From positions 7,041 to 71,040 of the IMG/VR virus record IMGVR_UViG_2713896899_000007: a stretch of 64,000 nt of DNA, one strand, 5' to 3'. Numbering within the stretch: the first letter of the stretch is position 1; every line of letters begins with the position of its first letter. The notes under the pieces were generated by a model that saw only the letters and a list, made by a program, of their open reading frames with translations, was not told the origin of the DNA and ran no database searches. Made by a program: the position numbers and the translations under genes. This stretch comes from a virus. Lineage: Duplodnaviria > Heunggongvirae > Uroviricota > Caudoviricetes. Positions 3,536-60,410 of the stretch are shown one piece after another.

Positions 3536-3617
3536 TGTTTCATCCTTGAAATAAGTAGGCGCTAACATCCTGTCAGCGCCACAATAATAGTAAATTAGTA
3601 CTTACTTATCCAGATAC

Positions 3618-3953
3618 TTAAGCCTCAAATACTTGTCTGAATGGAGCGGTTAATACTGCGTACCCTTGATATCGCTTGACCGTATGACTGTCGCATACAA
3701 CTACAATCCGTTTTCCTCTTGGATTAACCCAATAGAACGACTCAACACCTGCTCGCTCAGTCAGGAAGTCATCGATTGCATTAATTTCGTTGTATGATCT
3801 GGTAAAGGTTAACGACCATTCTTCTTTAATACGATTAAGACCTTGAGCCTGTCGCTGCTCGTAGTCATCACCAAAATTAAGTACCGTTACATTCGGTTTT
3901 ACGCTTTTTTCAGATTCGTAATCTGGATACCAATTAAACGTTTGTCTTTCCAT
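3618..3953 (-). CDS. minor tail protein, lambda M-like
   Basis: 111 aa. FGDDYEQRQAQGLN and FLTERAGVESFYW align with lambda M as I recall it. Confidence 0.8.
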   Translation of the reverse strand: MERQTFNWYPDYESEKSVKPNVTVLNFGDDYEQRQAQGLNRIKEEWSLTFTRSYNEINAIDDFLTERAGVESFYWVNPRGKRIVVVCDSHTVKRYQGYAVLTAPFRQVFEA

Positions 3954-6900: not shown

Positions 6901-8582
6901 GGAGTCTGTATGGCGGTCGCCATCGTGGCAAAGGTGCTAACCATCTGGCTGCCAGCGCCAACTCCCCCCATGATCCCTGCTCGCATCAGTTTGAACGCAA
7001 CCATCGCGGCCACGACCTTACCGAGATTAATTACCAGCTCTTGGTTCTTTGCTAACCATTGAGCAAGCTGACGCAACCCATCGATTGCCGTCGTTAACCC
7101 CGAACCTAAAGAATTGGCAAACGAAATCCCTTCGGCGCTATTCATGATTGAAGCCAGTTCTTTCATCCCCTTTGATAGAGAATCCAGATATCCGGCCTGA
7201 CCAACTCGATCAGCAAATAACGTGAATGACGTCTGAAGTTGCGCCAGCGCACCTGTGTAGGTTTGCATCATGTCTTTCGCTGCGTTCTCGTTCTCCGCAC
7301 GCAGACCAACAAACATCAGAGACAACGCCTGCTTTGCCTCAACCGTACCGCTGGCAACGGCTTTAGTTAGTTCCCCCATAGTGATGCCTGCGGCGTCTGC
7401 CATTGCCTGCATCGCGTTAGGAACGGCTTCACCTAATTGCTGACGTAGCTCTTCCATTGACACGACGCCCTTACCGGACATCTGCTGAACGGCCACAGCC
7501 GCACGTTTCAACAGCTCACTATCACCACCAAAACGAGCAACGGAGTCCACCAGCGCCTTCAGAGAACCATCGGTTGGATCTAAGCCAGCAGAACGAAACT
7601 TCACGAAGGAGTCTGTTAACGCCTGCATCGCGAACGGCGCATTTTGAGCCATGTCTACGATGTACTTCATATCATCAGCGGCAGCCTGGCCAGGGTTGGA
7701 CTTCTCCTTATTCAACCCTCGAAGCATCACCCGCATACGTTCCATTTCGGCCGCAGCTTCAACAATAGGCTTCTGCCACCCAAACATGATGTCAGTAACC
7801 GTTCTGGCTGCATCTCCGATCTCGCCAAGCAGGAAAATGTTGCCACGAAGGCCAGAGAACATACCTCCTTCGTTATTTTTACCGCTGTGGCCAGAAGCGC
7901 CGCTACGCTGCCTGCTACCGCTACCACCATCGCCACTTCCAGATGTACGAACGCGTACCGGCTTGCTAATCAGTTGCTGACGTCCGATAACTTCGTCCAT
8001 CTGCTCACGAACCTTTTTCAGTCCCTCGGCAGCCTGACTCGTTGTGACACCCCAATTACTGAGTCGCTTCGTCGTGGTATTAAGGCGCGTATTCATGCCA
8101 CTCACGGACGCAGAGGCTTCTTTGACCTCCGTACCAAAGCGGCTTGCGCTTTTGCTTGCATAGGTCGCCCAATCAGAGAAATCATTTAGCTCTGATTGCA
8201 CTTTACGTAATGACGCGGTGAGTTTATCTACTGAAGAAGTTGTCGTATCGACGCGCTCAATCAGGGCTTTAAGACCAGAATTGAGGCTGGTGATGTTGCC
8301 ACGCATTTTACGCGTAGCATCTGAAGCAAGCTCAAAACCGGCAGCTACATCCTGTAGTTTATCTGCCGTAGAATCGAGCTTGCTTTCCAGAACGCCAATG
8401 ATACGGGCGACCGAACCCAAAGAGCGTTCAAAGGTTTGGATTTTTTGAGCAGGCTTTGTTACCTGCTCACCAAATCGAGTAAGCAGTTTCCCCGCACGAT
8501 CGATTGACGCTGTAAACTGTTTGTCTTCCAGCGACAGGATAAACTCTACGTTTTGTGACATTCCCTTGTCATCCTCTGCCAA
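3996..8582 (-). CDS. tail tape measure protein
   Basis: 1528 aa, coiled-coil rich with central hydrophobic/Gly-rich segments. Lies between the chaperone genes and the M-like gene. The start is ambiguous (TTG 8582 or ATG 8561). Confidence 0.9.
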   Translation of the reverse strand: MAEDDKGMSQNVEFILSLEDKQFTASIDRAGKLLTRFGEQVTKPAQKIQTFERSLGSVARIIGVLESKLDSTADKLQDVAAGFELASDATRKMRGNITSLNSGLKALIERVDTTTSSVDKLTASLRKVQSELNDFSDWATYASKSASRFGTEVKEASASVSGMNTRLNTTTKRLSNWGVTTSQAAEGLKKVREQMDEVIGRQQLISKPVRVRTSGSGDGGSGSRQRSGASGHSGKNNEGGMFSGLRGNIFLLGEIGDAARTVTDIMFGWQKPIVEAAAEMERMRVMLRGLNKEKSNPGQAAADDMKYIVDMAQNAPFAMQALTDSFVKFRSAGLDPTDGSLKALVDSVARFGGDSELLKRAAVAVQQMSGKGVVSMEELRQQLGEAVPNAMQAMADAAGITMGELTKAVASGTVEAKQALSLMFVGLRAENENAAKDMMQTYTGALAQLQTSFTLFADRVGQAGYLDSLSKGMKELASIMNSAEGISFANSLGSGLTTAIDGLRQLAQWLAKNQELVINLGKVVAAMVAFKLMRAGIMGGVGAGSQMVSTFATMATAIQTPFNLGATAVTRFNRAARMGLAPIPSLIFAIRGAITGLKGAFAGLTAFIAANPIGAAFTVATVAVAGLITYMTMLRSETSKVVDEIRKIPEAMTAAKRAQMAEYKARLEQQITQKEQELKSGEKVVYGPGMAGTTVKINQDERKRIENELNDLRKKRDKTTGAIERGDIAVAKRLAKDAAESQIEKIREENRDFAATFAKARQEALEKIQKINDDDSLSDDEKNKLLAPLRETVNKSYLEPAQKLVDSLSSRKNAVEGQIATLNDQLEKAKKEGNTEQIKKLQGSIRGYQENLEVVAQELTQAEFERDNAAKTGKGVMSNQGTVLGLGTTDKAAQKALAQYMRNQMDSATYQRTLPDGTPMMDFEGKPIIGPKQLKTQLNLQKASSASSLEKMSDEERAAAIAALTKAREQDAAAAEKAAQRSANASQRAAKKEQAAQQKLAAGYQKALDKADQLMGQMGESSKATVSFDQSLRDTTKSLTDLANAVPNEFITQEMIDKAKKRLEDLKNATPEYREMFNRRNVEQMISTWAPEADSIISAGYTPSREEKVADFEDTYNRNLKALIELRDKASDPKVVALYTKKINQLIAAGNTALIKETGTATQKLALEYENLAEQIESTWTDLFSGLTDVLTDFVINGKMSFSSLSQSILKDITNMVVKSQITLPLMNMLGMGTTAAGSSQSGNLLTGVASAVANQGVRMGNTVNGDKSVGEATKETSSSVTGLGQTTQQTTSAIGTATNAIGSWVSGLFDSTEAKDAETKAVKDSIFSMQNLSSVTGALSAAFAMLGANASGSGNKWLNFGATVASGLVSVWAGGGFDSVTSSSAKTATSSVADGTKGIPAIPKFANGGIFGKDGVIPLRAYQKGGIANSPQLALFGEGSMNEAYVPLPDGRTIPVTLSTDGMSGGGNVLSPVSIEINVHSDGSTTESGDTESIWNNAAKRVKAVVLETIAQEKRPGGSLNPNTQRN

Positions 8583-10038: not shown

Positions 10039-10112
10039 TGATGGAAAACTCCTTTTTCCGTTAATTCTACGCATTCATTGCGCTAATGGTAAGTATATAC
10101 TTACCGATTAAC

Positions 10113-17076: not shown

Positions 17077-17102
17077 TTGAATAACCTTAGATAATTACTT
17101 AC

Positions 17103-18359
17103 CTATCTAGAACCACCAAGAATAACACGGTTTTTGACTGGATACCTACGATGTACTGGATAGCCCAATGCGTCTGCACTATGCTCAATGCCACCTGTCT
17201 TATCCATATCTCGTGTTCCAGGCTTGTAGATGACTTTTTCCAGTGAATCAATCAAATGCTTGCACTTCGGATCGATATACAACCGGATATCTCCAGATGC
17301 GGTCATCAGCATTCGGTTAACAGCATTAACACGATCCGCAATTGGCGGGTGCTTTTTCGAATAATCGACACGTAAGAATCCCTTCTCTTTGAAAATGTCG
17401 ACGTCAGACTCCCCGCGAGCATGTTGGCGATAAGCACCTGCCGGATCTGGAAATACCGTTATCTGTGATTTCCAGCGCCAGAAGCGTCTCTCAAGCTCAT
17501 CACAAACCTCTGCCGTGTTAGAGGAAAAGAGCACCAATTCATCAATTGCCCATAGCTCACCATTTGGCTGAGGTTGCAAAATTACTGAAGACATCGGGTC
17601 AATGTTGAAGTCCTGCCCTACCCATATAGGCAACCGAGGGTTGAACTGAAGCGGTTTTACATGCACGTTACGATCGAACGGGTAGTAAACGCGCCCGGAC
17701 ATGTTCTCAAAGCTCGCCAGGTACTCCTGAGCGAACGATTTCGGGTCCATATCGTTCTTAGCAGCTTCAATTTCCGCCGTAGGTACAAACGGAGAATCGG
17801 CAGTTACAAACTGCCAGCTCTTCCACTGTCCCTTTCTTTGCAGCTCTACGTTCTGGCCTATAGTCCACAGTTTGTGAAATTCCGAGAAGCCTTTTGGCGT
17901 ACCAATGATCAGTGCACCGCCGCGTGTCGATGAAAGAGTAGGTCGTAACACCTTGTACCAGGTGTCAGCCTTCATATCCTGAAATTCATCAAGCACTACA
18001 AAATGCAACGCTACGCCGCGCAGAGTGTCAGGCTTATCAGCACCTTTGAGGGCGATCTCCGAACCGTTCTTCAACACGATTGTCATCGTGGTGTCGTTCT
18101 TTTTCCTAACCCACTTACGAGGCAGAACTTCCTGTAGATCGTCCCACAAAATCTGGCGAGCCATCTGGTAAGTAGGAGCGACATACCAGACTCTTTGCTT
18201 TTTTTCCTTTGCCGCCGCACGAATAATAGTGGAGATCGACAACCGGGATTTTCCCCAGCGTCGACCAGCACAAACAACTTTAAATCGATGCGGAGACTGG
18301 AAGACTTTCATCTGTCCAGAATGCAGTTGCACAAGACTGAGCGAGGACGGGATTGCCAT
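17103..18359 (-). CDS. terminase large subunit
   Basis: Walker A GRRWGKS and Walker B HFVVLDEF, with a C-terminal nuclease-like half. ATGA overlap with the upstream gene. Confidence 0.9.
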   Translation of the reverse strand: MAIPSSLSLVQLHSGQMKVFQSPHRFKVVCAGRRWGKSRLSISTIIRAAAKEKKQRVWYVAPTYQMARQILWDDLQEVLPRKWVRKKNDTTMTIVLKNGSEIALKGADKPDTLRGVALHFVVLDEFQDMKADTWYKVLRPTLSSTRGGALIIGTPKGFSEFHKLWTIGQNVELQRKGQWKSWQFVTADSPFVPTAEIEAAKNDMDPKSFAQEYLASFENMSGRVYYPFDRNVHVKPLQFNPRLPIWVGQDFNIDPMSSVILQPQPNGELWAIDELVLFSSNTAEVCDELERRFWRWKSQITVFPDPAGAYRQHARGESDVDIFKEKGFLRVDYSKKHPPIADRVNAVNRMLMTASGDIRLYIDPKCKHLIDSLEKVIYKPGTRDMDKTGGIEHSADALGYPVHRRYPVKNRVILGGSR

Positions 18360-28165: not shown

Positions 28166-28625
28166 GTTTACAATACACCCACCATAACGCGCCAATAATG
28201 GCGCTTTTTTATTGTCTTTAACTCACTCCAACAACATAAAAATAAGCGCCAAAATAACGCCATAGACGCGCTTTTATATCCTTGTCAGTACATACCCATT
28301 ACTTAACACATTAACGCGCTTAAAATGCGTTATATTGCGCTATAACGTATGGCTAATCATTAATTTTTATTCTTGCTATGTGATCCGCGTTTAATTGTCG
28401 GCGCGGATCGGCATTTTGTTTTGTTCCGTATCCGCTCGCGTATTATGTGCGCGTGATTTTTCACATAATCACACCACTTAATCACGTATGTGATTATGCT
28501 ACGAAAGAAATCTGGATGTCTCAGGCGACGAAAGTCATCATAATTTTCCCCGCTCACCTGTCCGACAACCGCTGGTTGGATTCCACCAGCTTCCCGATGT
28601 TTTTTCTACATAAAGGCGAATGCAG

Positions 28626-30690: not shown

Positions 30691-30706
30691 GTAAGTATGT
30701 ACTTAC
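30691..30706. repeat. TAAGTA-type palindrome GTAAGTAtgTACTTAC
   Basis: Perfect 7-bp arms, upstream of the 30647 start. Confidence 0.6.
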
Positions 30707-30773
30707 AATACAAAAAAGCCCCGTAAGGATGGCGGGGCTGTCGTACTGTCGACTAATTACCACTTGCACATTA

Positions 30774-40246: not shown

Positions 40247-40545
40247 TGCGACCTTAAATGCCTCATTTTCAGATTATTGAACTGACGCCCGTTTAGAGGG
40301 CCATGTTCTGTCAACATGTTGTGTAATTTCCATGCCGCGTCGTTAACTTCGTTGGATGATCTGGGAGGCAACTTGCAAGTTTGGCTTACAGGTTCTGCAC
40401 TATCAGCTTCGCGCCGCTTCTGTAGCTCTGCTGCCATCGCTCTCACGACTTCAACTGGTGCCCTTGCAGCAAACTCTATGTTGGTGATCAGCTCATTAAG
40501 ATATTGCTCGCCTGGATACTGTTTCTTATCGGTTATAGTAGTCAT
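40210..40545 (-). CDS. hypothetical protein
   Basis: ATG 40545 directly follows the upstream stop. Confidence 0.5.
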   Translation of the reverse strand: MTTITDKKQYPGEQYLNELITNIEFAARAPVEVVRAMAAELQKRREADSAEPVSQTCKLPPRSSNEVNDAAWKLHNMLTEHGPLNGRQFNNLKMRHLRSQCATIRLLLMVG

Positions 40546-40546
40546 A

Positions 40547-40969
40547 TCACTCTCCTTTTCCCTGAAGCATAGCGGCACGGCAGGCGTTCCATCCATCTGC
40601 GTAACAATCTCTGTGCGTCTTGAAATTTGTCACCGCTCTTGGTACATCCTTTACATCTATTTCATCAGGCACAATCGGCGCTGGAGGGGCTGCGTAGACC
40701 TCAATAACTCCATTATCAATAGGCCACTCCCCATCCTTGATGTAGTCACTTGTGCCGTCAACTTGCTGTTCTGCAATGTGGAATGCACCTATTGGTTTTG
40801 CTTCCAGCGAGGCCAGTGCAATTCGTGCCAGTTTTAGATCTCGTTCAACCATCTCAATAACAACTTTGCAGTCCGCACCTTCTTTACTAACACGTCCTTT
40901 CAAGTCTTCCAGATAACTAACGCTTTCGCGTGCATGGGAGATTAACTGTTCTTTGGTTAAGGTGGTCAT
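40547..40969 (-). CDS. ead/Ea22-like protein
   Basis: Coiled-coil N-terminus and a C-terminal ...CYADGWNACRAAMLQ motif common in lambdoid Ea22-region proteins (from memory). Confidence 0.5.
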   Translation of the reverse strand: MTTLTKEQLISHARESVSYLEDLKGRVSKEGADCKVVIEMVERDLKLARIALASLEAKPIGAFHIAEQQVDGTSDYIKDGEWPIDNGVIEVYAAPPAPIVPDEIDVKDVPRAVTNFKTHRDCYADGWNACRAAMLQGKGE

Positions 40970-44532: not shown

Positions 44533-44593
44533 GTGTTTTTCTCTTATCGTTTAGTTACTACATTCTTACACAAATTAAGTAAGTATTTACCTA

Positions 44594-46279
44594 TCATTTA
44601 ACGCGTTTGAAAACGTATACGCTGACTGTGATCCCTGTGTCTTCAAACTCGTTGGTAAACGACTTCCCTCTGGCATAAACGTAATTATCCATCGTCATCC
44701 AGTCCAGTATTGGCGCAGTGCCCGGCAATACTGCTACAAGACGCCCGCCGACTTTCAGATGCCCCAGCGCAGCCATCGTGTGCTCTCTATGACGACCAAG
44801 CGAGTACGGCGGGTTCATAACGATTTTGTCGAACTGATAACCTGCGTTGTCCTCAGACCACTTTATGAAGTCGCAGCAAATCGTGTTCGTATACCCTTTT
44901 CCACGCAGGATATCAGCGAAGAGAGGTGCGATTTCTATGCAGGTAACATCTTCCAGATCGGCGTTAATATAGGCCAGAAGATCCCCACGTCCGGCTTGAG
45001 GCTCCAGCAGCTTCTCACCAGGCTTCAATTCAGTGGCTCTGGCAACGTACTCAGCAATCAAGCGTGGGGTAGGGTAGAACTGGTGTGATTTTGTATCCGG
45101 TATTAAACCGGTAGCCACAATCGTATTTAGCGTATGGCCGATGTCATACGGGAACTGCCAGTGCTTTTTCTCCTGCACGCCGCCAATGAAGCTCAGTGTG
45201 CGCTCAAGCTCTTCCACCTGCGACTTCTGGAGAGCTGAATCAGAGAAGTACCATACGCCTTTGTCTTTGCTCAATCGCCCGTCACGAAGCGCAGTGCGAA
45301 CCGGCACGGAGATCGTCTTCTGGATTAACCCGAACTGCTTTGGTGCCCGTGTTTTTGGCGCAGTGCGGCATGGCGCGGGGATTGCAGCAGGCATACTGTA
45401 AGCCAGCACCTCATTCAACTTCCAGGCCACGTCAGGATGTATTTCAAAGTGAACGTTGCCGTTCTTGAACATCTTCACGCGCATCAGATTTCCATCGACG
45501 TTCATCCAGTCACCGGTCTGGCAGTCGTTTGCCCGATACGCAGCTGATAGCACCTCAGCAGTGCGGTTGATGGTAATAAATTCTTTGTGCGCGAAGAAAT
45601 GAAGCAAGACACGCAGATCGTCGATGTAGTCCTCTTTGCGATAGTTCACGCTAACGCTGTCCCGCCAGAAATCAGAAATGCAGTCAGCGATTATCAGCCG
45701 CTCGCTGAAACCGTTTGTCTTATTCGTCTTGTGCGCAGGACTCAGCGCCTTAAACAAGCCATACACGCGCTCAGAGAGATATTTGTGCCTGTCATTCAGC
45801 AAATTAAGCATCGTGGGTATGACCGTTTCTGCTTTGAACTCCGGTACACCAACGAACTCTTTAACCTTCATCTGGTAGCCGGTTCTGTCAGTTTTGATGA
45901 CTTCCTGTTTGCCCTCTATAAACTGCTCGCGCCACTCATCTCGACGGGAAGCTGGCATGATCAGCAAAACGTTAGTCATGTCCGTGACCTTCCTCCAGTA
46001 CTCGGCCCAAATATTCTGTTTCACCCATTCCAGATCGACTTTATCCAACCAACCTCGATTTAAACGCGAGCGATCTTCATCTGGTCGATGGTTTAGTCGC
46101 AGCAGGCGATTAATCATGTTGTGGCGTTCGTCGCCATAAACGAAGTCGTGTACCTGATACATGAAGGCGATCTCTTTCTCGCACTCGGCCACGATTTCGT
46201 GGATGACATTCATTTCCTGACGATAGTCGATAGCCGTGTTTGAGCTGGCATCGTCGATGATGGAAAGGGCTGTATTCAT
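44594..46279 (-). CDS. N6-adenine-type DNA methyltransferase with large N-terminal domain (DUF4942-like)
   Basis: Motif I LEPQAGRG and motif IV NPPY in the C-terminal third. Confidence 0.7.
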   Translation of the reverse strand: MNTALSIIDDASSNTAIDYRQEMNVIHEIVAECEKEIAFMYQVHDFVYGDERHNMINRLLRLNHRPDEDRSRLNRGWLDKVDLEWVKQNIWAEYWRKVTDMTNVLLIMPASRRDEWREQFIEGKQEVIKTDRTGYQMKVKEFVGVPEFKAETVIPTMLNLLNDRHKYLSERVYGLFKALSPAHKTNKTNGFSERLIIADCISDFWRDSVSVNYRKEDYIDDLRVLLHFFAHKEFITINRTAEVLSAAYRANDCQTGDWMNVDGNLMRVKMFKNGNVHFEIHPDVAWKLNEVLAYSMPAAIPAPCRTAPKTRAPKQFGLIQKTISVPVRTALRDGRLSKDKGVWYFSDSALQKSQVEELERTLSFIGGVQEKKHWQFPYDIGHTLNTIVATGLIPDTKSHQFYPTPRLIAEYVARATELKPGEKLLEPQAGRGDLLAYINADLEDVTCIEIAPLFADILRGKGYTNTICCDFIKWSEDNAGYQFDKIVMNPPYSLGRHREHTMAALGHLKVGGRLVAVLPGTAPILDWMTMDNYVYARGKSFTNEFEDTGITVSVYVFKRVK

Positions 46280-48496: not shown

Positions 48497-48644
48497 GTGG
48501 ACTCCATCCAGTGTCAGAAAGAGTTGCGGCTGGCGATTGCCAGCCGCCTTTCTCGTTCCATCCTGGAACTGTGTCTTACCGACACATTGTCATCCTGACG
48601 CCGATAAGATACATGATTTAAAATAATAGGTAAATACTTACTTA

Positions 48645-49235
48645 CTAATTGTTATAAACAAAACCAATATCTTTCTTGTGAGGCATATCTGCTGCTGAAA
48701 AAGCTGCGATCTTCGCGAGTCGATCACATATTTCATTTTCACGATGCCCGGCGTGACCTTTAACCCACTTCCAGCGAACATTATGTCGACTTGCGGCCTC
48801 ATCCAGACGCTTCCACAGATCAACATTCTTTACCGGTTTTTTGTCAGAAGTCATCCATCCATTGCGTTTCCACCATTTCATCCACTGTGTCATGCCGTTT
48901 TTCAGATACTGGCTATCAGAGTGCAAAATAACGTTGCATGGATATTTCAAACGCTCCAGCCCGATAAGTGCCCCCATCATCTCCATGCGGTTATTGGTGG
49001 TGCTATGAAAACCATCTGAGAACTCGCGTTCCTCACCACGATACTGGAGAACTATACCGTAACCGCCCGGGCCACCCGGATTTTTAAGGCAAGAGCCATC
49101 ACTGAAGATTTTCACGGTTTTAAGCTGGGGATTGAACTCTACGACAGGCGTTGTGGGATTGGTGCGGGGAGAATTTTTGTTTTTGTCTTTTTTGCGAGTT
49201 TTTGCTTGCGATCGGGCTGGTGTCTTCGACGTCAT
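48645..49235 (-). CDS. rnhA: ribonuclease HI
   Basis: The SDGSC...NNRMEMM...HSDSQY...[18 protein letters not shown] motifs. ATG 49235 has an AGGAG RBS. Confidence 0.9.
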
Positions 49236-49399
49236 ATAAACTCCTGAATCAAGCGCCGCGCCGATTTTTTTCCTCGCGCGTGCGCACACGCGTGCGTGTA
49301 ATAATTATTAAAATAAACAAATTACTTCCCAGTACAGGTTTTTATAAACCTGAACTGAACGAACGAAGTGAGTGAAGTTCACCTCGAACGAAGTGAGAG

Positions 49400-49700
49400 G
49401 TTGTCTTTTCAGGTAATACTCTCCCAGGGAGGTGAGTATAAAATTCCTCACCAACCTGGTCGTTTCATAACCTGAAAAGCTATGGTCTAAGTCTACTGCC
49501 AGCTTAGACTTGGGAAGTTATGGATGACAGCACCCCAGAACCGAGATCTTCCCACACTTTATGAAGGGGAGTACTGGATTCAACCTCTCGAAACACCCCA
49601 GACTCGACAATCATAAAGTGACCCTTGTCTCTGCTCACTTTGGTTCCCCCTTCCCCGACACCTAAACGGCACCGGTTCTACGCTGGTAGTGAGCTTTTTT
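49400..49700 (+). ncRNA. candidate structured RNA (hypothetical; strand uncertain)
   Basis: Nested helices: 49405-49414/49470-49479 (10 bp), 49555-49564/49611-49620 (10 bp), 49537-49543/49671-49677. A further helix, 49633-49639/49688-49694, is followed by T6. Confidence 0.3.
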
Positions 49701-49817
49701 AAACCTGACGCCAGTGACGCTTACCCCCACCCATCAGGTCGAGTCTCCAGTCTATGACTGGAAACTATCAGATCTTAGCACTTACAATTCATCTTATGAA
49801 TAGTTTGTACTTATCTA

Positions 49818-50048
49818 TCATTTCGATTGATTATTTTCTCGACCATGTAGTTGAACATTCAAGGCAAACACCTCGTTGATCAACTCACCTAAAAGCTGTT
49901 CAACAAGTTCGCGATGCTCCCCAAGATGCAAGCACTTAATTGCCCATTCGTACAAGTTGAAAGCCTGCTCGCGATCTTTCATCATTTCACGAGCCTTAGC
50001 CAGAAAATCGCTCTCTACGAGCGCAACAACATTGGTCGGGTATGACAT
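49818..50048 (-). CDS. hypothetical protein
   Basis: 76 aa ORF. Confidence 0.5.
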   Translation of the reverse strand: MSYPTNVVALVESDFLAKAREMMKDREQAFNLYEWAIKCLHLGEHRELVEQLLGELINEVFALNVQLHGRENNQSK

Positions 50049-50157
50049 GTTAGTTTTCCTTAAAGTGGTTCATAAAATCGATTTTAAAGCGTCTGAGAAG
50101 GGGTTCTAGTGGATTCTGTAGTGGTGTTCAGGTCTGGGAGTCTCTGATACAAAACAG

Positions 50158-50210
50158 CCTGCTTCCGTATATTAATAATTAATATGTAGTTATTTATATA
50201 CAGAAGCAGG
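50158..50210. repeat. second copy of the cctgcttccgtatat inverted repeat
   Basis: 15-bp arms with 1 mismatch. ggtctggga lies upstream at 50131, as in the first copy at 19087. Confidence 0.8.
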
Positions 50211-50233
50211 TTAATTACACTCGCCAGAACAAA

Positions 50234-50827
50234 CTAAGCAGCCTTCTTTGATGGTCTTTTTTTCCTGACCACATTCGCAGGATCATACCCTCCCAGACTT
50301 TTCATTACGTCCAAAGGGATCTTGCTTATAGAGTGCCCAGCGTCCTGACAGAATCCTCGAAAAACAACGAGCATACTGCCACCGGGGTTGATGTTTACTT
50401 CTACCTGACCCAAATTGACGTCAGGCTCGACAAACGCTACGCGGCCACCAGACAGAATAATCGTCTCATTCGCATACTCTGTTGCACGCTCATACCACTT
50501 TGTATCGAGGGATTGAGGAATTAGCATCACTGTTGTAACTCCGCGAGCCTGCTCACGTATAGCAGCATCAATCCAGGGGGAGATTTTGGAGTAGGGTGGA
50601 TTGAGGAAGGCAATTGTACCTGGCTGTCCCCATTCAGATTTCAAAGCATCGCGCTCAACGCCTATGAAATTAGGCAGCTTTGCATTGTCCTTGTTGCAGG
50701 CAACGTCAACATCAAATGTCACTCCAAGATAACGTTGAATGGCAGAAAACAGCCAATCAGGTGTTCTCCAGAGGTCACGAAGAGAGTTGTCGCGCTTTCG
50801 CTGTTTGATTTTTTCGGCTGCAATCAT
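50234..50827 (-). CDS. phage-type DNA N6-adenine methyltransferase
   Basis: WRTPDWLF and FLNPPYS motifs. 197 aa. Confidence 0.85.
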   Translation of the reverse strand: MIAAEKIKQRKRDNSLRDLWRTPDWLFSAIQRYLGVTFDVDVACNKDNAKLPNFIGVERDALKSEWGQPGTIAFLNPPYSKISPWIDAAIREQARGVTTVMLIPQSLDTKWYERATEYANETIILSGGRVAFVEPDVNLGQVEVNINPGGSMLVVFRGFCQDAGHSISKIPLDVMKSLGGYDPANVVRKKRPSKKAA

Positions 50828-50837
50828 CTTCTTTCTC

Positions 50838-50857
50838 GATAGGTAAGTGATTACCTA
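50838..50857. repeat. TAAGTA-type palindrome ATAGGTAAgtgaTTACCTAT
   Basis: Perfect 8-bp arms directly upstream of the MTase start. Confidence 0.65.
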
Positions 50858-60390: not shown

Positions 60391-60410
60391 ATAGATAAGC
60401 ACTTACCTAT
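60391..60410. repeat. TAAGTA-type palindrome ATAGATAAGcaCTTACCTAT
   Basis: Near-perfect arms between the RuvC-like stop and the nrdA start. Confidence 0.55.

Follow-up and report, generated by a model that had tools for sequence, protein, structure and literature searches.

A conserved structured RNA, very probably the product of a non-coding RNA gene, in the SSU5/pHCM2-like phage-plasmids of Enterobacteriaceae

The 64,000-nucleotide stretch of viral DNA analysed here (positions 7,041 to 71,040 of IMG/VR record IMGVR_UViG_2713896899_000007; this whole stretch is referred to as the window) belongs to an SSU5/pHCM2-like phage-plasmid of Escherichia coli and contains a gap between genes that very probably encodes a structured RNA. 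Positions 49200–49900 are 97–99% identical to the E. coli SSU5-like phage-plasmids CMS-2020a, PhiR41_1 and Cyrano, 87% identical to Salmonella phage SSU5 and 100% identical to plasmid NZ_CP048306.1. The gap is situated within a block of minus-strand genes, which on the upstream side code for ribonucleotide reductase, thymidylate synthase, dihydrofolate reductase, a DnaQ-like exonuclease, a 269-aa protein, Dam and a 76-aa protein, and on the downstream side for RNase HI (rnhA) and small accessory proteins. It extends over ∼580 bp (49239–49817), from the stop of the 76-aa open reading frame (ORF) at 49818 to the ATG of rnhA at 49238. A preliminary description of the window, prepared from the sequence alone, had considered the gap to be free of genes and to be a candidate structured RNA or cis element. 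The former holds; no ORF in the gap is conserved over 15 diverse copies.

Homologues of the RNA locus are present at 689 places in 687 plasmids of PLSDB, the hosts of which include Klebsiella, Escherichia, Enterobacter, Salmonella, Citrobacter, Cronobacter and others, as well as in 12 phage records and in 79 IMG/VR contigs (one copy each). Among 5426 complete E. coli genomes, 232 (∼4%) contain the locus; in total, 234 places were found in 233 E. coli records. Nearly all of these records have one copy. When 11 diverse loci were compared, the core of the gap (49324–49720) displayed a mean pairwise identity of 0.90–0.98, whereas the genes on its two sides are less conserved (0.78–0.89 for RNase H and 0.80–0.89 for the 76-aa ORF) and the two edges of the gap are its most variable parts. 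Because the non-coding segment exceeds the neighbouring genes in conservation, the core appears to be under selection of its own.

More divergent copies (individual loci are denoted by L numbers) were reached through the family of the 76-aa protein and are 68–70% (L089/L091 and L094), 85% (L092) and 87–90% (L097 and L098) identical. This protein family is narrow, consisting of 29 clusters, each at least 61% identical. The 76-aa protein, modelled as a three-helix protein, gave no clue to the RNA or to a partnership with it, having neither a Pfam domain nor a fold match in the PDB. One further contig (L093, Logan SRR8137545) was excluded from the alignments as a bisulfite-converted assembly. Essentially every C is replaced by T over its locus, and such contigs can mimic divergent homologues and produce false G·U 'covariation'.

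In order to describe the structure, we used two alignments: A1, composed of 73 unique copies in the operon-sense (minus) orientation, and A3, composed of 15 diverse copies including the 68–70%-identical ones. The RNAalifold consensus of A1 contains 132 pairs in 20 helices, and 99.7% of the alignment cells at these pairs are standard pairs. Changes on both sides were observed for 14 pairs, compared to 2–4 when the partners were slid by 1–3 columns, and 192 cells carry double changes, compared to 48.5±7.9 in shuffled alignments (0 of 500 as high). In A3, 34 of the 125 pairs display double changes (4–10 in the slid controls; 11.4±2.4 in shuffles, 0 of 500). Covariation directly supports helices P1, P2, P3, P4, P8, P9, P11, P12, P13, P15 and P17. 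Helices without variation in the main clade are altered on both arms in L089, yet the pairing is kept: UGGGAAG/CUUCCCA is replaced by AGGAAGG/CCUUCCU, GUCUAAGCUG/UAGCUUAGAC by ACCGGGACUG/UAGUCUCGGU (only the paired columns are given), and CACUUUAUGA/UCAUAAAGUG by CACUGUA-GG/UCCUACAGUG. A covariance model of a 140-nt domain (R1, 49483–49622) recovered the divergent copies at 126–154 bits.

Most of the structural claims of the preliminary description are borne out by these data. The folding of the gap does exceed what is expected from dinucleotide-shuffled sequence: the minimum free energy has a z-score of −4.0 on the plus and −5.7 on the minus strand, and 0 of 100 shuffles were as good on either. 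Five of the six helices listed there are exact reverse complements at the positions assigned to them, and five of the six are included in the covariation-supported consensus. The sequences of the sixth, the long-range pairing agaaccg/cggttct, are present in the window, although the 3′ arm is located at 49672–49678, one base away from where it had been placed; we rejected this helix, since L089 and L094 disrupt the pairing without compensation. A pseudoknot GAAGGGG/CCCCUUC, judged by eye, is not claimed, the variation being insufficient.

All features described below are on the minus strand and are given from the 5′ end of the RNA. The terminal hairpin P1 (49743–49765, with a predicted start at ∼49765–49766) has double changes in three of its six pairs; its sequence is wholly different between lineages, and the pairing is always retained. 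It is followed by P2 (49702–49740), a long G·U-rich hairpin (GACCUGAUGGGUGGGG.../...CGUCAGGUU) of 15 pairs, five of which are compensatory on A3 and which is 97–100% paired. A single-stranded linker of six A residues (49695–49700; A5 to A8 among the copies) separates P2 from P3. This is the T6 run of the plus strand, which is present at these positions and had been described as following a stem oriented for the plus strand; on the minus strand it lies between two helices and is not a terminator tail. The P3–P5 domain (49633–49694) is composed of a closing stem GCUCAC/GUGAGC, an inner hairpin CCGGUGCC/GGUGUCGG and a G-rich unpaired segment GGGGAAGGGGGAA. In P3, UA pairs are changed to CG via U·G intermediates, and in L089 the stem is wholly different yet pairs.

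The central multi-branch domain (49395–49631) has four arms, P8–P10 (49620–49555), P11–P12 (49554–49511), P13 (49509–49485) and P14–P15 (49478–49406), with compensatory changes in P8, P9, P11, P12, P13 and P15. The helix predicted to close it, P6/P7, does not vary within the main clade and is imperfect in L089 and L094. P14 requires realignment, after which CAGG/CCUG appears, by eye, to be replaced by CUGG/CCAG; a hairpin CAUARC/GYUAUG that overlaps and competes with P14 also covaries. Two exact 13-nt direct repeats, CUCACUUCGUUCG (cgaacgaagtgag on the plus strand), are located at 49360–49372 and 49385–49397 and are drawn as hairpin P16 (49390–49360). The preliminary description had recognized this repeat and placed its second copy correctly at 49385, the first copy starting at 49360 and not at 49361. 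The motif CUCACUYCGUUCG is present in 2–3 copies in L089, and the P16 pairing is without support in the divergent copies. Elsewhere in the window, cgaacgaagtgag was not found. The 3′ hairpin P17 (UUCAG..CAGG/CCUG..CUGGG; 49328–49359) has two compensatory pairs, with variants in which GGUUU/AAACC is replaced by GGGG/CCCC or by GGGAU/UUCCUU. Finally, a near-invariant CUGGGAAGUAA leads into an A/U-rich tract (49299–49332) that is fixed in composition and variable in sequence. Several unpaired segments are kept even at 68% identity, namely UACCAGCG of the P3–P5 domain, UUGUC, AUCUCGRUUCUG, a GCAG loop and CAUAGY, as is typical for RNAs that form tertiary contacts or bind partners.

The preliminary description had oriented the stem with its T6 run along the plus strand, antisense to the surrounding operon. 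Consensus energies, the excess of G·U pairs, the compensatory pairs and the promoter all favour the opposite orientation. The consensus energy is −143.2 kcal/mol for the minus and −106.9 kcal/mol for the plus strand in A1 (−115 and −84, respectively, in A3), the minus reading contains 1248 G·U cells against 16 A·C cells (∼80:1), and compensatory pairs are commoner on the minus than on the plus strand. Where one compensated state has given way to another, the intermediate is U·G or G·U when read in the minus sense (for example UA:45/CG:18/UG:10 and GU:44/GC:22/AU:7). In DNA or on the plus strand, such intermediates would be A·C mismatches, so that the folded molecule, as judged from the comparative pattern, is a minus-strand RNA in the sense of the operon.

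A putative sigma-70 promoter precedes the RNA. The candidate −35 element (49795–49800, minus strand) is TTCATA in the window and TTnAnn in all copies, T18 and T19 being invariant in the 73 unique copies, and the extended −10 element TGnTAnnAT (TGCTAAGAT in the window; 49772–49780, hexamer 49777–49772) has T38, T41, A42, A45 and T46 invariant. The spacer is 17 nt long in every group and free in sequence. The hexamer varies at the tolerant positions 3 and 4 (TAAGAT, TAAAAT, TACAAT, TAGAAT, TAATAT, TAGGAT, TAACAT), and the extended −10 is kept in 15 of 15 diverse copies, including those of 68% identity; one copy reads TAAACT. Within the variable 50 nt past the stop of the 76-aa ORF, the invariant bases are the key sigma-70 positions, a TAAGTA block of a palindrome and two isolated bases. 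A simple promoter and terminator scan (threshold 9/12) retrieved no minus-strand promoter; the signature is seen only through the pattern of conservation. Judged by its distance from the −10 element, the predicted start falls near 49765, the first base of P1. On the 3′ side of the RNA we found no canonical intrinsic terminator, the U-run beginning 7–8 nt past the stem. Conservation drops past 49322, and 49299–49332 is probably the 3′ end or a processing zone.

Published RNA sequencing (RNA-seq) data show that a relative of the RNA is expressed in lysogens as an abundant, discrete transcript. Over the RNA region, the window shares 96.7% identity with Cyrano, the SSU5-like phage-plasmid carried by E. 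coli LF82. In the study of Misson et al., CYRAN_81 belonged to the small set of Cyrano genes with transcripts in the lysogen, at 12-fold above the local Cyrano background in lysogeny broth (LB) cultures, the value for the putative repressor being 10-fold (PMC9928086). CYRAN_81, annotated as a hypothetical protein (CDS 78657–78791 of Cyrano, 135 nt), corresponds to a 44-aa ORF with a GTG start that lies inside the RNA (49504–49638, minus strand) and is lost or truncated in 7 of the 15 diverse copies. Since this ORF is not conserved, the signal is attributed to the RNA and not to a small-protein gene.

S1 Table of that paper gives log2(5+FPKM), where FPKM denotes fragments per kilobase per million, for two replicates in each of five conditions; the condition names used here are our interpretation of the sample names BLB, B1, B6, MB1 and MB6. 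For CYRAN_81 the values are 6.82/6.92 in LB overnight, 9.34/9.02 and 6.94/6.89 after 1 h and 6 h in medium, and 8.97/8.23 and 10.35/10.30 after 1 h and 6 h in macrophages. In the same order, CYRAN_80, the 76-aa gene, has 3.36/3.13, 4.62/4.20, 4.10/4.07, 5.81/5.14 and 5.22/5.01, and CYRAN_82, rnhA, has 2.59/3.44, 3.87/3.83, 4.42/4.27, 4.70/4.01 and 5.02/4.78. Thus, the 76-aa gene is at background in the lysogen while the RNA is high, and across the five conditions the CYRAN_81 signal is 6–40-fold over both neighbouring genes, falling by this factor from the RNA to rnhA (PMC9928086). A discrete transcript at such a level next to a silent upstream operon requires a separate promoter. Expression in the phage-plasmid is highest at a different locus, CYRAN_43 (hypothetical protein; 40268–40822 of OV696614), which adjoins the integrase and the putative repressor and reaches 723-fold over the prophage background (log2 11.5–14.9; PMC9928086).

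The RNA is located at the border between the conserved replication and nucleotide-metabolism module and a variable hotspot of defence, anti-defence and cargo genes, and travels with the upstream side of this boundary, the replication module. Downstream of it, L089/L091 encode a 200-aa DUF7557-like protein and a Tad2-like anti-Thoeris protein, the Buttiauxella plasmid L097 a Gabija-like OLD-ATPase/UvrD pair on the opposite strand, and L007 and L013 betT cargo. The RNA is therefore not tied to RNase H. The hotspot is seen at 3829–4916 in L089, 3895–6231 in L097, 174–2171 in L007 and L013, and 5937–6225 in L098; depending on the element it contains genes for Tad2-like proteins, a Gabija-like OLD-TOPRIM ATPase with a UvrD helicase, an Mrr-type restriction protein, TerB/DUF3927 proteins or betT cargo. 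Genes other than that for RNase H occupy this place in L006, L007, L051, L055, L071 and L088 (region 49250–49298 of the window). In these loci, homology stops a few bases past an A-run, upstream of the rnhA ribosome-binding site, which suggests a recurrent recombination junction.

The leader of rnhA (49239–49298, minus strand), which is probably outside the RNA, is a variable region with a 23-nt alternating purine–pyrimidine tract, the A-run, a GC-rich segment and a Shine–Dalgarno sequence. The alternating tract is present at 49276–49298, as had been described; it is Z-DNA-prone and is shortened in five of the six loci in which RNase H is replaced. In several records rnhA is annotated from an upstream start (the GTG at 49289 in the window, giving 48645–49289; a 765-nt gene in SSU5, SSU5_090, L002; KPHS_p101180 in L009). 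These calls cross the alternating tract and the A-run, and the conserved ATG at 49238, with its GGAG Shine–Dalgarno sequence, is a better fit.

A palindrome of ∼14–18 bp close to TAGGTAAGTACTTACCTA recurs in the window, mainly at short intergenic junctions of minus-strand operons (3593–3610, 10088–10105, 17090–17103, 28283–28296, 30694–30707, 44578–44595, 48629–48642, 49802–49815, 50842–50855 and 60394–60407). With up to two mismatches, GRTAAGTACWWAC has 26 matches in the window, compared to 5.7±2.3 expected (0 of 100 shuffles). One copy sits between the stop codon of the 76-aa ORF and the −35 element of the RNA. As a function for the palindrome, a dispersed operator of the 'stoperator' type, an attenuator or a hairpin for processing may be considered. 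An AT-rich imperfect inverted repeat at 50156–50214, CCTGCTTC.GTATAT...ATATAC.GAAGCAGG, is situated between dam and the 76-aa gene. It is followed on the minus strand by CUGUUUUGU and looks like an intrinsic terminator after dam; the Rfam matches at this site are spurious and of microRNA type, and a repeat search with exact seeds did not pick it up.

Comparison with known RNA families did not assign the RNA to any of them. None of the 4227 models of Rfam 15, including those for ROOL, GOLLD, OLE, raiA, 6S, CsrB, tmRNA, RNase P, RNAI and group I/II introns, was matched at gathering score in the 64-kb window in the Rfam scan, a check that the preliminary description had proposed. With relaxed filters on 48500–50800, the matches overlapping the gap or its edges scored 15–20 bits, far under the gathering thresholds, and ARAGORN identified no tRNA or tmRNA. 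Type III toxin–antitoxin systems have ToxI-like antitoxin RNAs in which a tandem array of ∼36-nt repeats precedes the gene for an endoribonuclease toxin. The locus has two 13-nt repeats, units that do not match full length, and a next gene that encodes RNase HI or is another variable gene instead of the endoribonuclease expected; no search was aimed at toxin models. The literature searched contains no description of a non-coding RNA of SSU5/pHCM2, and no RNA gene is marked here in any of the RefSeq and GenBank records inspected, in which the region is unannotated, lies partly under an over-extended rnhA call or is annotated as a hypothetical protein.

Taken together, the covariation and the published transcript make it very probable that the locus is an autonomous structured non-coding RNA, as one half of the preliminary proposal had it. 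The outcomes named there as refuting a structured RNA, no stable transcript and no support from covariation, are both contradicted by these data. A sigma-70 promoter (−35 at 49800–49795, extended −10 at 49780–49772) would start a minus-strand transcript near 49765. The transcript would be ∼440–470 nt long, and would end or be processed in the A/U-rich zone at ∼49300–49322. Its fold would begin with a protective hairpin at the 5′ end and continue with a long hairpin rich in G·U pairs, a domain of three helices, a multi-branch domain with four arms and a 3′ hairpin. The RNA may act in trans as a protein-binding scaffold or decoy, or have another structure-dependent function serving the lysogenic plasmid state. 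Such a role is favoured because the RNA is large and multi-domain with unpaired segments as conserved as its helices, and because no antisense target is detectable and its level is uncoupled from that of the downstream genes. A trans-acting, structure-dependent action is nevertheless put forward tentatively; the combined statement, an autonomous minus-strand RNA gene with a fold-dependent role in trans, we consider reasonably likely, the weight being on the identity.

Several points weigh against this reading. For helices P6/P7, P14 and P16, independent support is slight or absent, the main clade being too conserved. The strand-specificity of the LF82 RNA-seq data is unconfirmed, so that the strand assignment rests on the comparative evidence. 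Both ends of the transcript are inferred and a canonical terminator is lacking; what accumulates may be a stable fragment processed from a longer transcript. The family has a narrow phylogenetic range (SSU5-like elements of Enterobacteriaceae), and all covariation comes from few lineages. In L095/L096 (3226–3938), a 71%-identical copy of the 76-aa gene is followed by an unrelated 713-nt gap and then by two genes with RNase H domains; no homologue of the RNA was found in that gap by blastn, nhmmer or the covariance model. Since these loci keep the neighbouring gene with a different gap sequence, the RNA is dispensable or replaceable.

The strongest competing explanation is a cis-acting leader RNA of the immunity type: the promoter would drive the downstream accessory operon, and the RNA or a processed piece of it would hold this operon off in lysogeny through premature termination or attenuation. 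The c4 RNA of phage P1, CI of P4 and CA of N15 are leader-encoded RNAs that act in this way on the anti-repressor operons of plasmid prophages, as all three of these phages are. With them the RNA described here shares a phage-plasmid as its carrier, a constitutive-type promoter, expression in lysogeny, a position 5′ of an accessory or anti-repressor region and a transcript that falls sharply beyond it. The drop before the next gene is 6–40-fold, the RNA lies at the 5′ edge of the variable region, and the SSU5/pHCM2 version of that region has an Ant/Rha anti-repressor-like gene. Alternative pairings could be allowed by the repeated CUCACUUCGUUCG, by the many GUGAG/CUCAC segments and by the hairpin that competes with P14. 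However, c4, CI and CA are ∼80 nt long, tRNA-like and processed by RNase P, whereas the RNA is a multi-branch molecule of ∼450 nt, about six times larger, and has no Rfam match, including to the c4-type antisense families held there. No target sites were found: the longest match complementary to the RNA in the 64-kb window is 12 nt, equal to shuffled sequences, and pairing with the rnhA leader, as estimated by the crude method of RNAduplex, is weaker than that of shuffles. The downstream genes depend on the lineage and are on the opposite strand in L097, which leaves no constant regulated target, and they stay at background while the level of the RNA shifts ∼10-fold (PMC9928086). Nor does the locus resemble a riboswitch or attenuator leader of rnhA, given the lack of a canonical terminator, the variable downstream gene, the RNA's own promoter and its 6–40-fold excess over rnhA. 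We regard an immunity-type leader as unlikely.

Far less probable is a primer or origin-activating transcript, in which the G-rich RNA would form a persistent R-loop in the downstream AT-rich region, be processed by RNase H and prime lytic replication. Known examples of such primers are ColE1 RNA II, T4 oriF/oriG and the primers of the mitochondrial conserved sequence blocks (CSB). Like RNA II, the RNA is a plasmid-borne structured molecule of ∼0.5 kb with its own promoter, and in the window it adjoins an RNase H gene, within a replication and nucleotide-metabolism block, and lies upstream of an AT-rich tract of conserved composition. G-runs in the sense RNA (GGGUGGGGG, GGGGAAGGGGG), the Z-DNA-prone tract and two iteron-like 13-mers would also suit a primer. 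Unlike in the case of RNA II, the linkage to RNase H is not conserved, other genes being the neighbours in several lineages, and the RNA is a stable, abundant, discrete species in non-induced lysogens (PMC9928086). No conserved antisense unit of the RNA I type was found, folding being poorer and compensatory pairs fewer on the plus strand, and there is no match to the RNAI model. The RNA has no sequence or model similarity to RNA II. The iteron-like repeats amount to two exact 13-mers 25 bp apart (2–3 copies in L089), with an AT-rich tract and no adjacent initiator gene; cumulative GC skew has no origin-like inflection at the site, and the plasmid replicon, typed as IncFIB by MOB-suite, is a separate one located elsewhere. 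For the 3′ flank, a ColE1-like primer or origin transcript is possible, although poorly supported.

The remaining half of the preliminary proposal, a cis element, is very improbable for the locus as a whole. A DNA-level element, such as a recombination or module-boundary site, a protein-binding array or a cruciform with incidental hairpins, would agree with the position at the border of the cargo hotspot, with the end of homology just downstream where RNase H is replaced, and with the recurrent intergenic palindrome that abuts the RNA. The repeats, the AT-rich tract and the alternating CG/CA tract of the 3′ flank may be cis elements of this kind; the RNA-specific covariation cannot be accounted for in this way. 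Compensation proceeds via G·U and not A·C and is strongly strand-asymmetric, which is unexpected for DNA hairpins, and the locus has a promoter signature and an abundant transcript. Least probable of all is a small-protein gene, the 44-aa ORF annotated as CYRAN_81 in OV696614 and counted as a 'moron', considering its GTG start, its loss or truncation in other copies, and the single-nucleotide indels and RNA-type covariation across it.

A non-coding RNA acting in trans thus remains the preferred reading, and the RNA represents a new family within the known kinds of phage-borne structured non-coding RNAs, differing from each of the named relatives in defining features. Among the systems close to it are the large ornate RNAs GOLLD and ROOL of phages and prophages, with which it shares a large size, multiple junctions, strong covariation, carriage by phages, conserved unpaired segments and the lack of a known function. 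GOLLD and ROOL are ∼580–800 nt long, compared to ∼450 nt here, and their covariance models (Rfam 15) were not matched; in addition, the RNA is found in phage-plasmids of Enterobacteriaceae, is preceded by a sigma-70 promoter of its own and reaches high levels in lysogens. It is conceivable, although doubtful, that a new class of large bacterial RNAs with multiple junctions begins with this RNA, which, through its three-dimensional fold and not through base-pairing, would maintain or protect the plasmid-prophage state of the SSU5 family. Such fold-based roles would be those of a ribonucleoprotein scaffold, a decoy that binds a protein of host defence or of RNA metabolism, a ROOL/GOLLD-like self-assembling RNA or a catalytic RNA.

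SSU5/pHCM2-like phage-plasmids are common in clinical Enterobacteriaceae, and the control of their lysogeny is essentially unstudied. The RNA is carried by 4% of the complete E. coli genomes and by hundreds of plasmids of Klebsiella, Enterobacter and Salmonella, some of which carry genes for extended-spectrum beta-lactamases or carbapenemases. It provides a specific sequence marker for typing phage-plasmids of the SSU5 family, and its recognition corrects a recurrent mis-annotation (CYRAN_81 and the over-long rnhA calls). In contrast to most large RNAs without an assigned function, it occurs in the genetically tractable E. coli, Salmonella and Klebsiella, including the K-12-infecting phage PhiR41_1. 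Its conservation, higher than that of the neighbouring proteins, together with its expression in the lysogen makes the RNA a prime candidate for a function in maintenance, immunity or anti-defence of these phage-plasmids.

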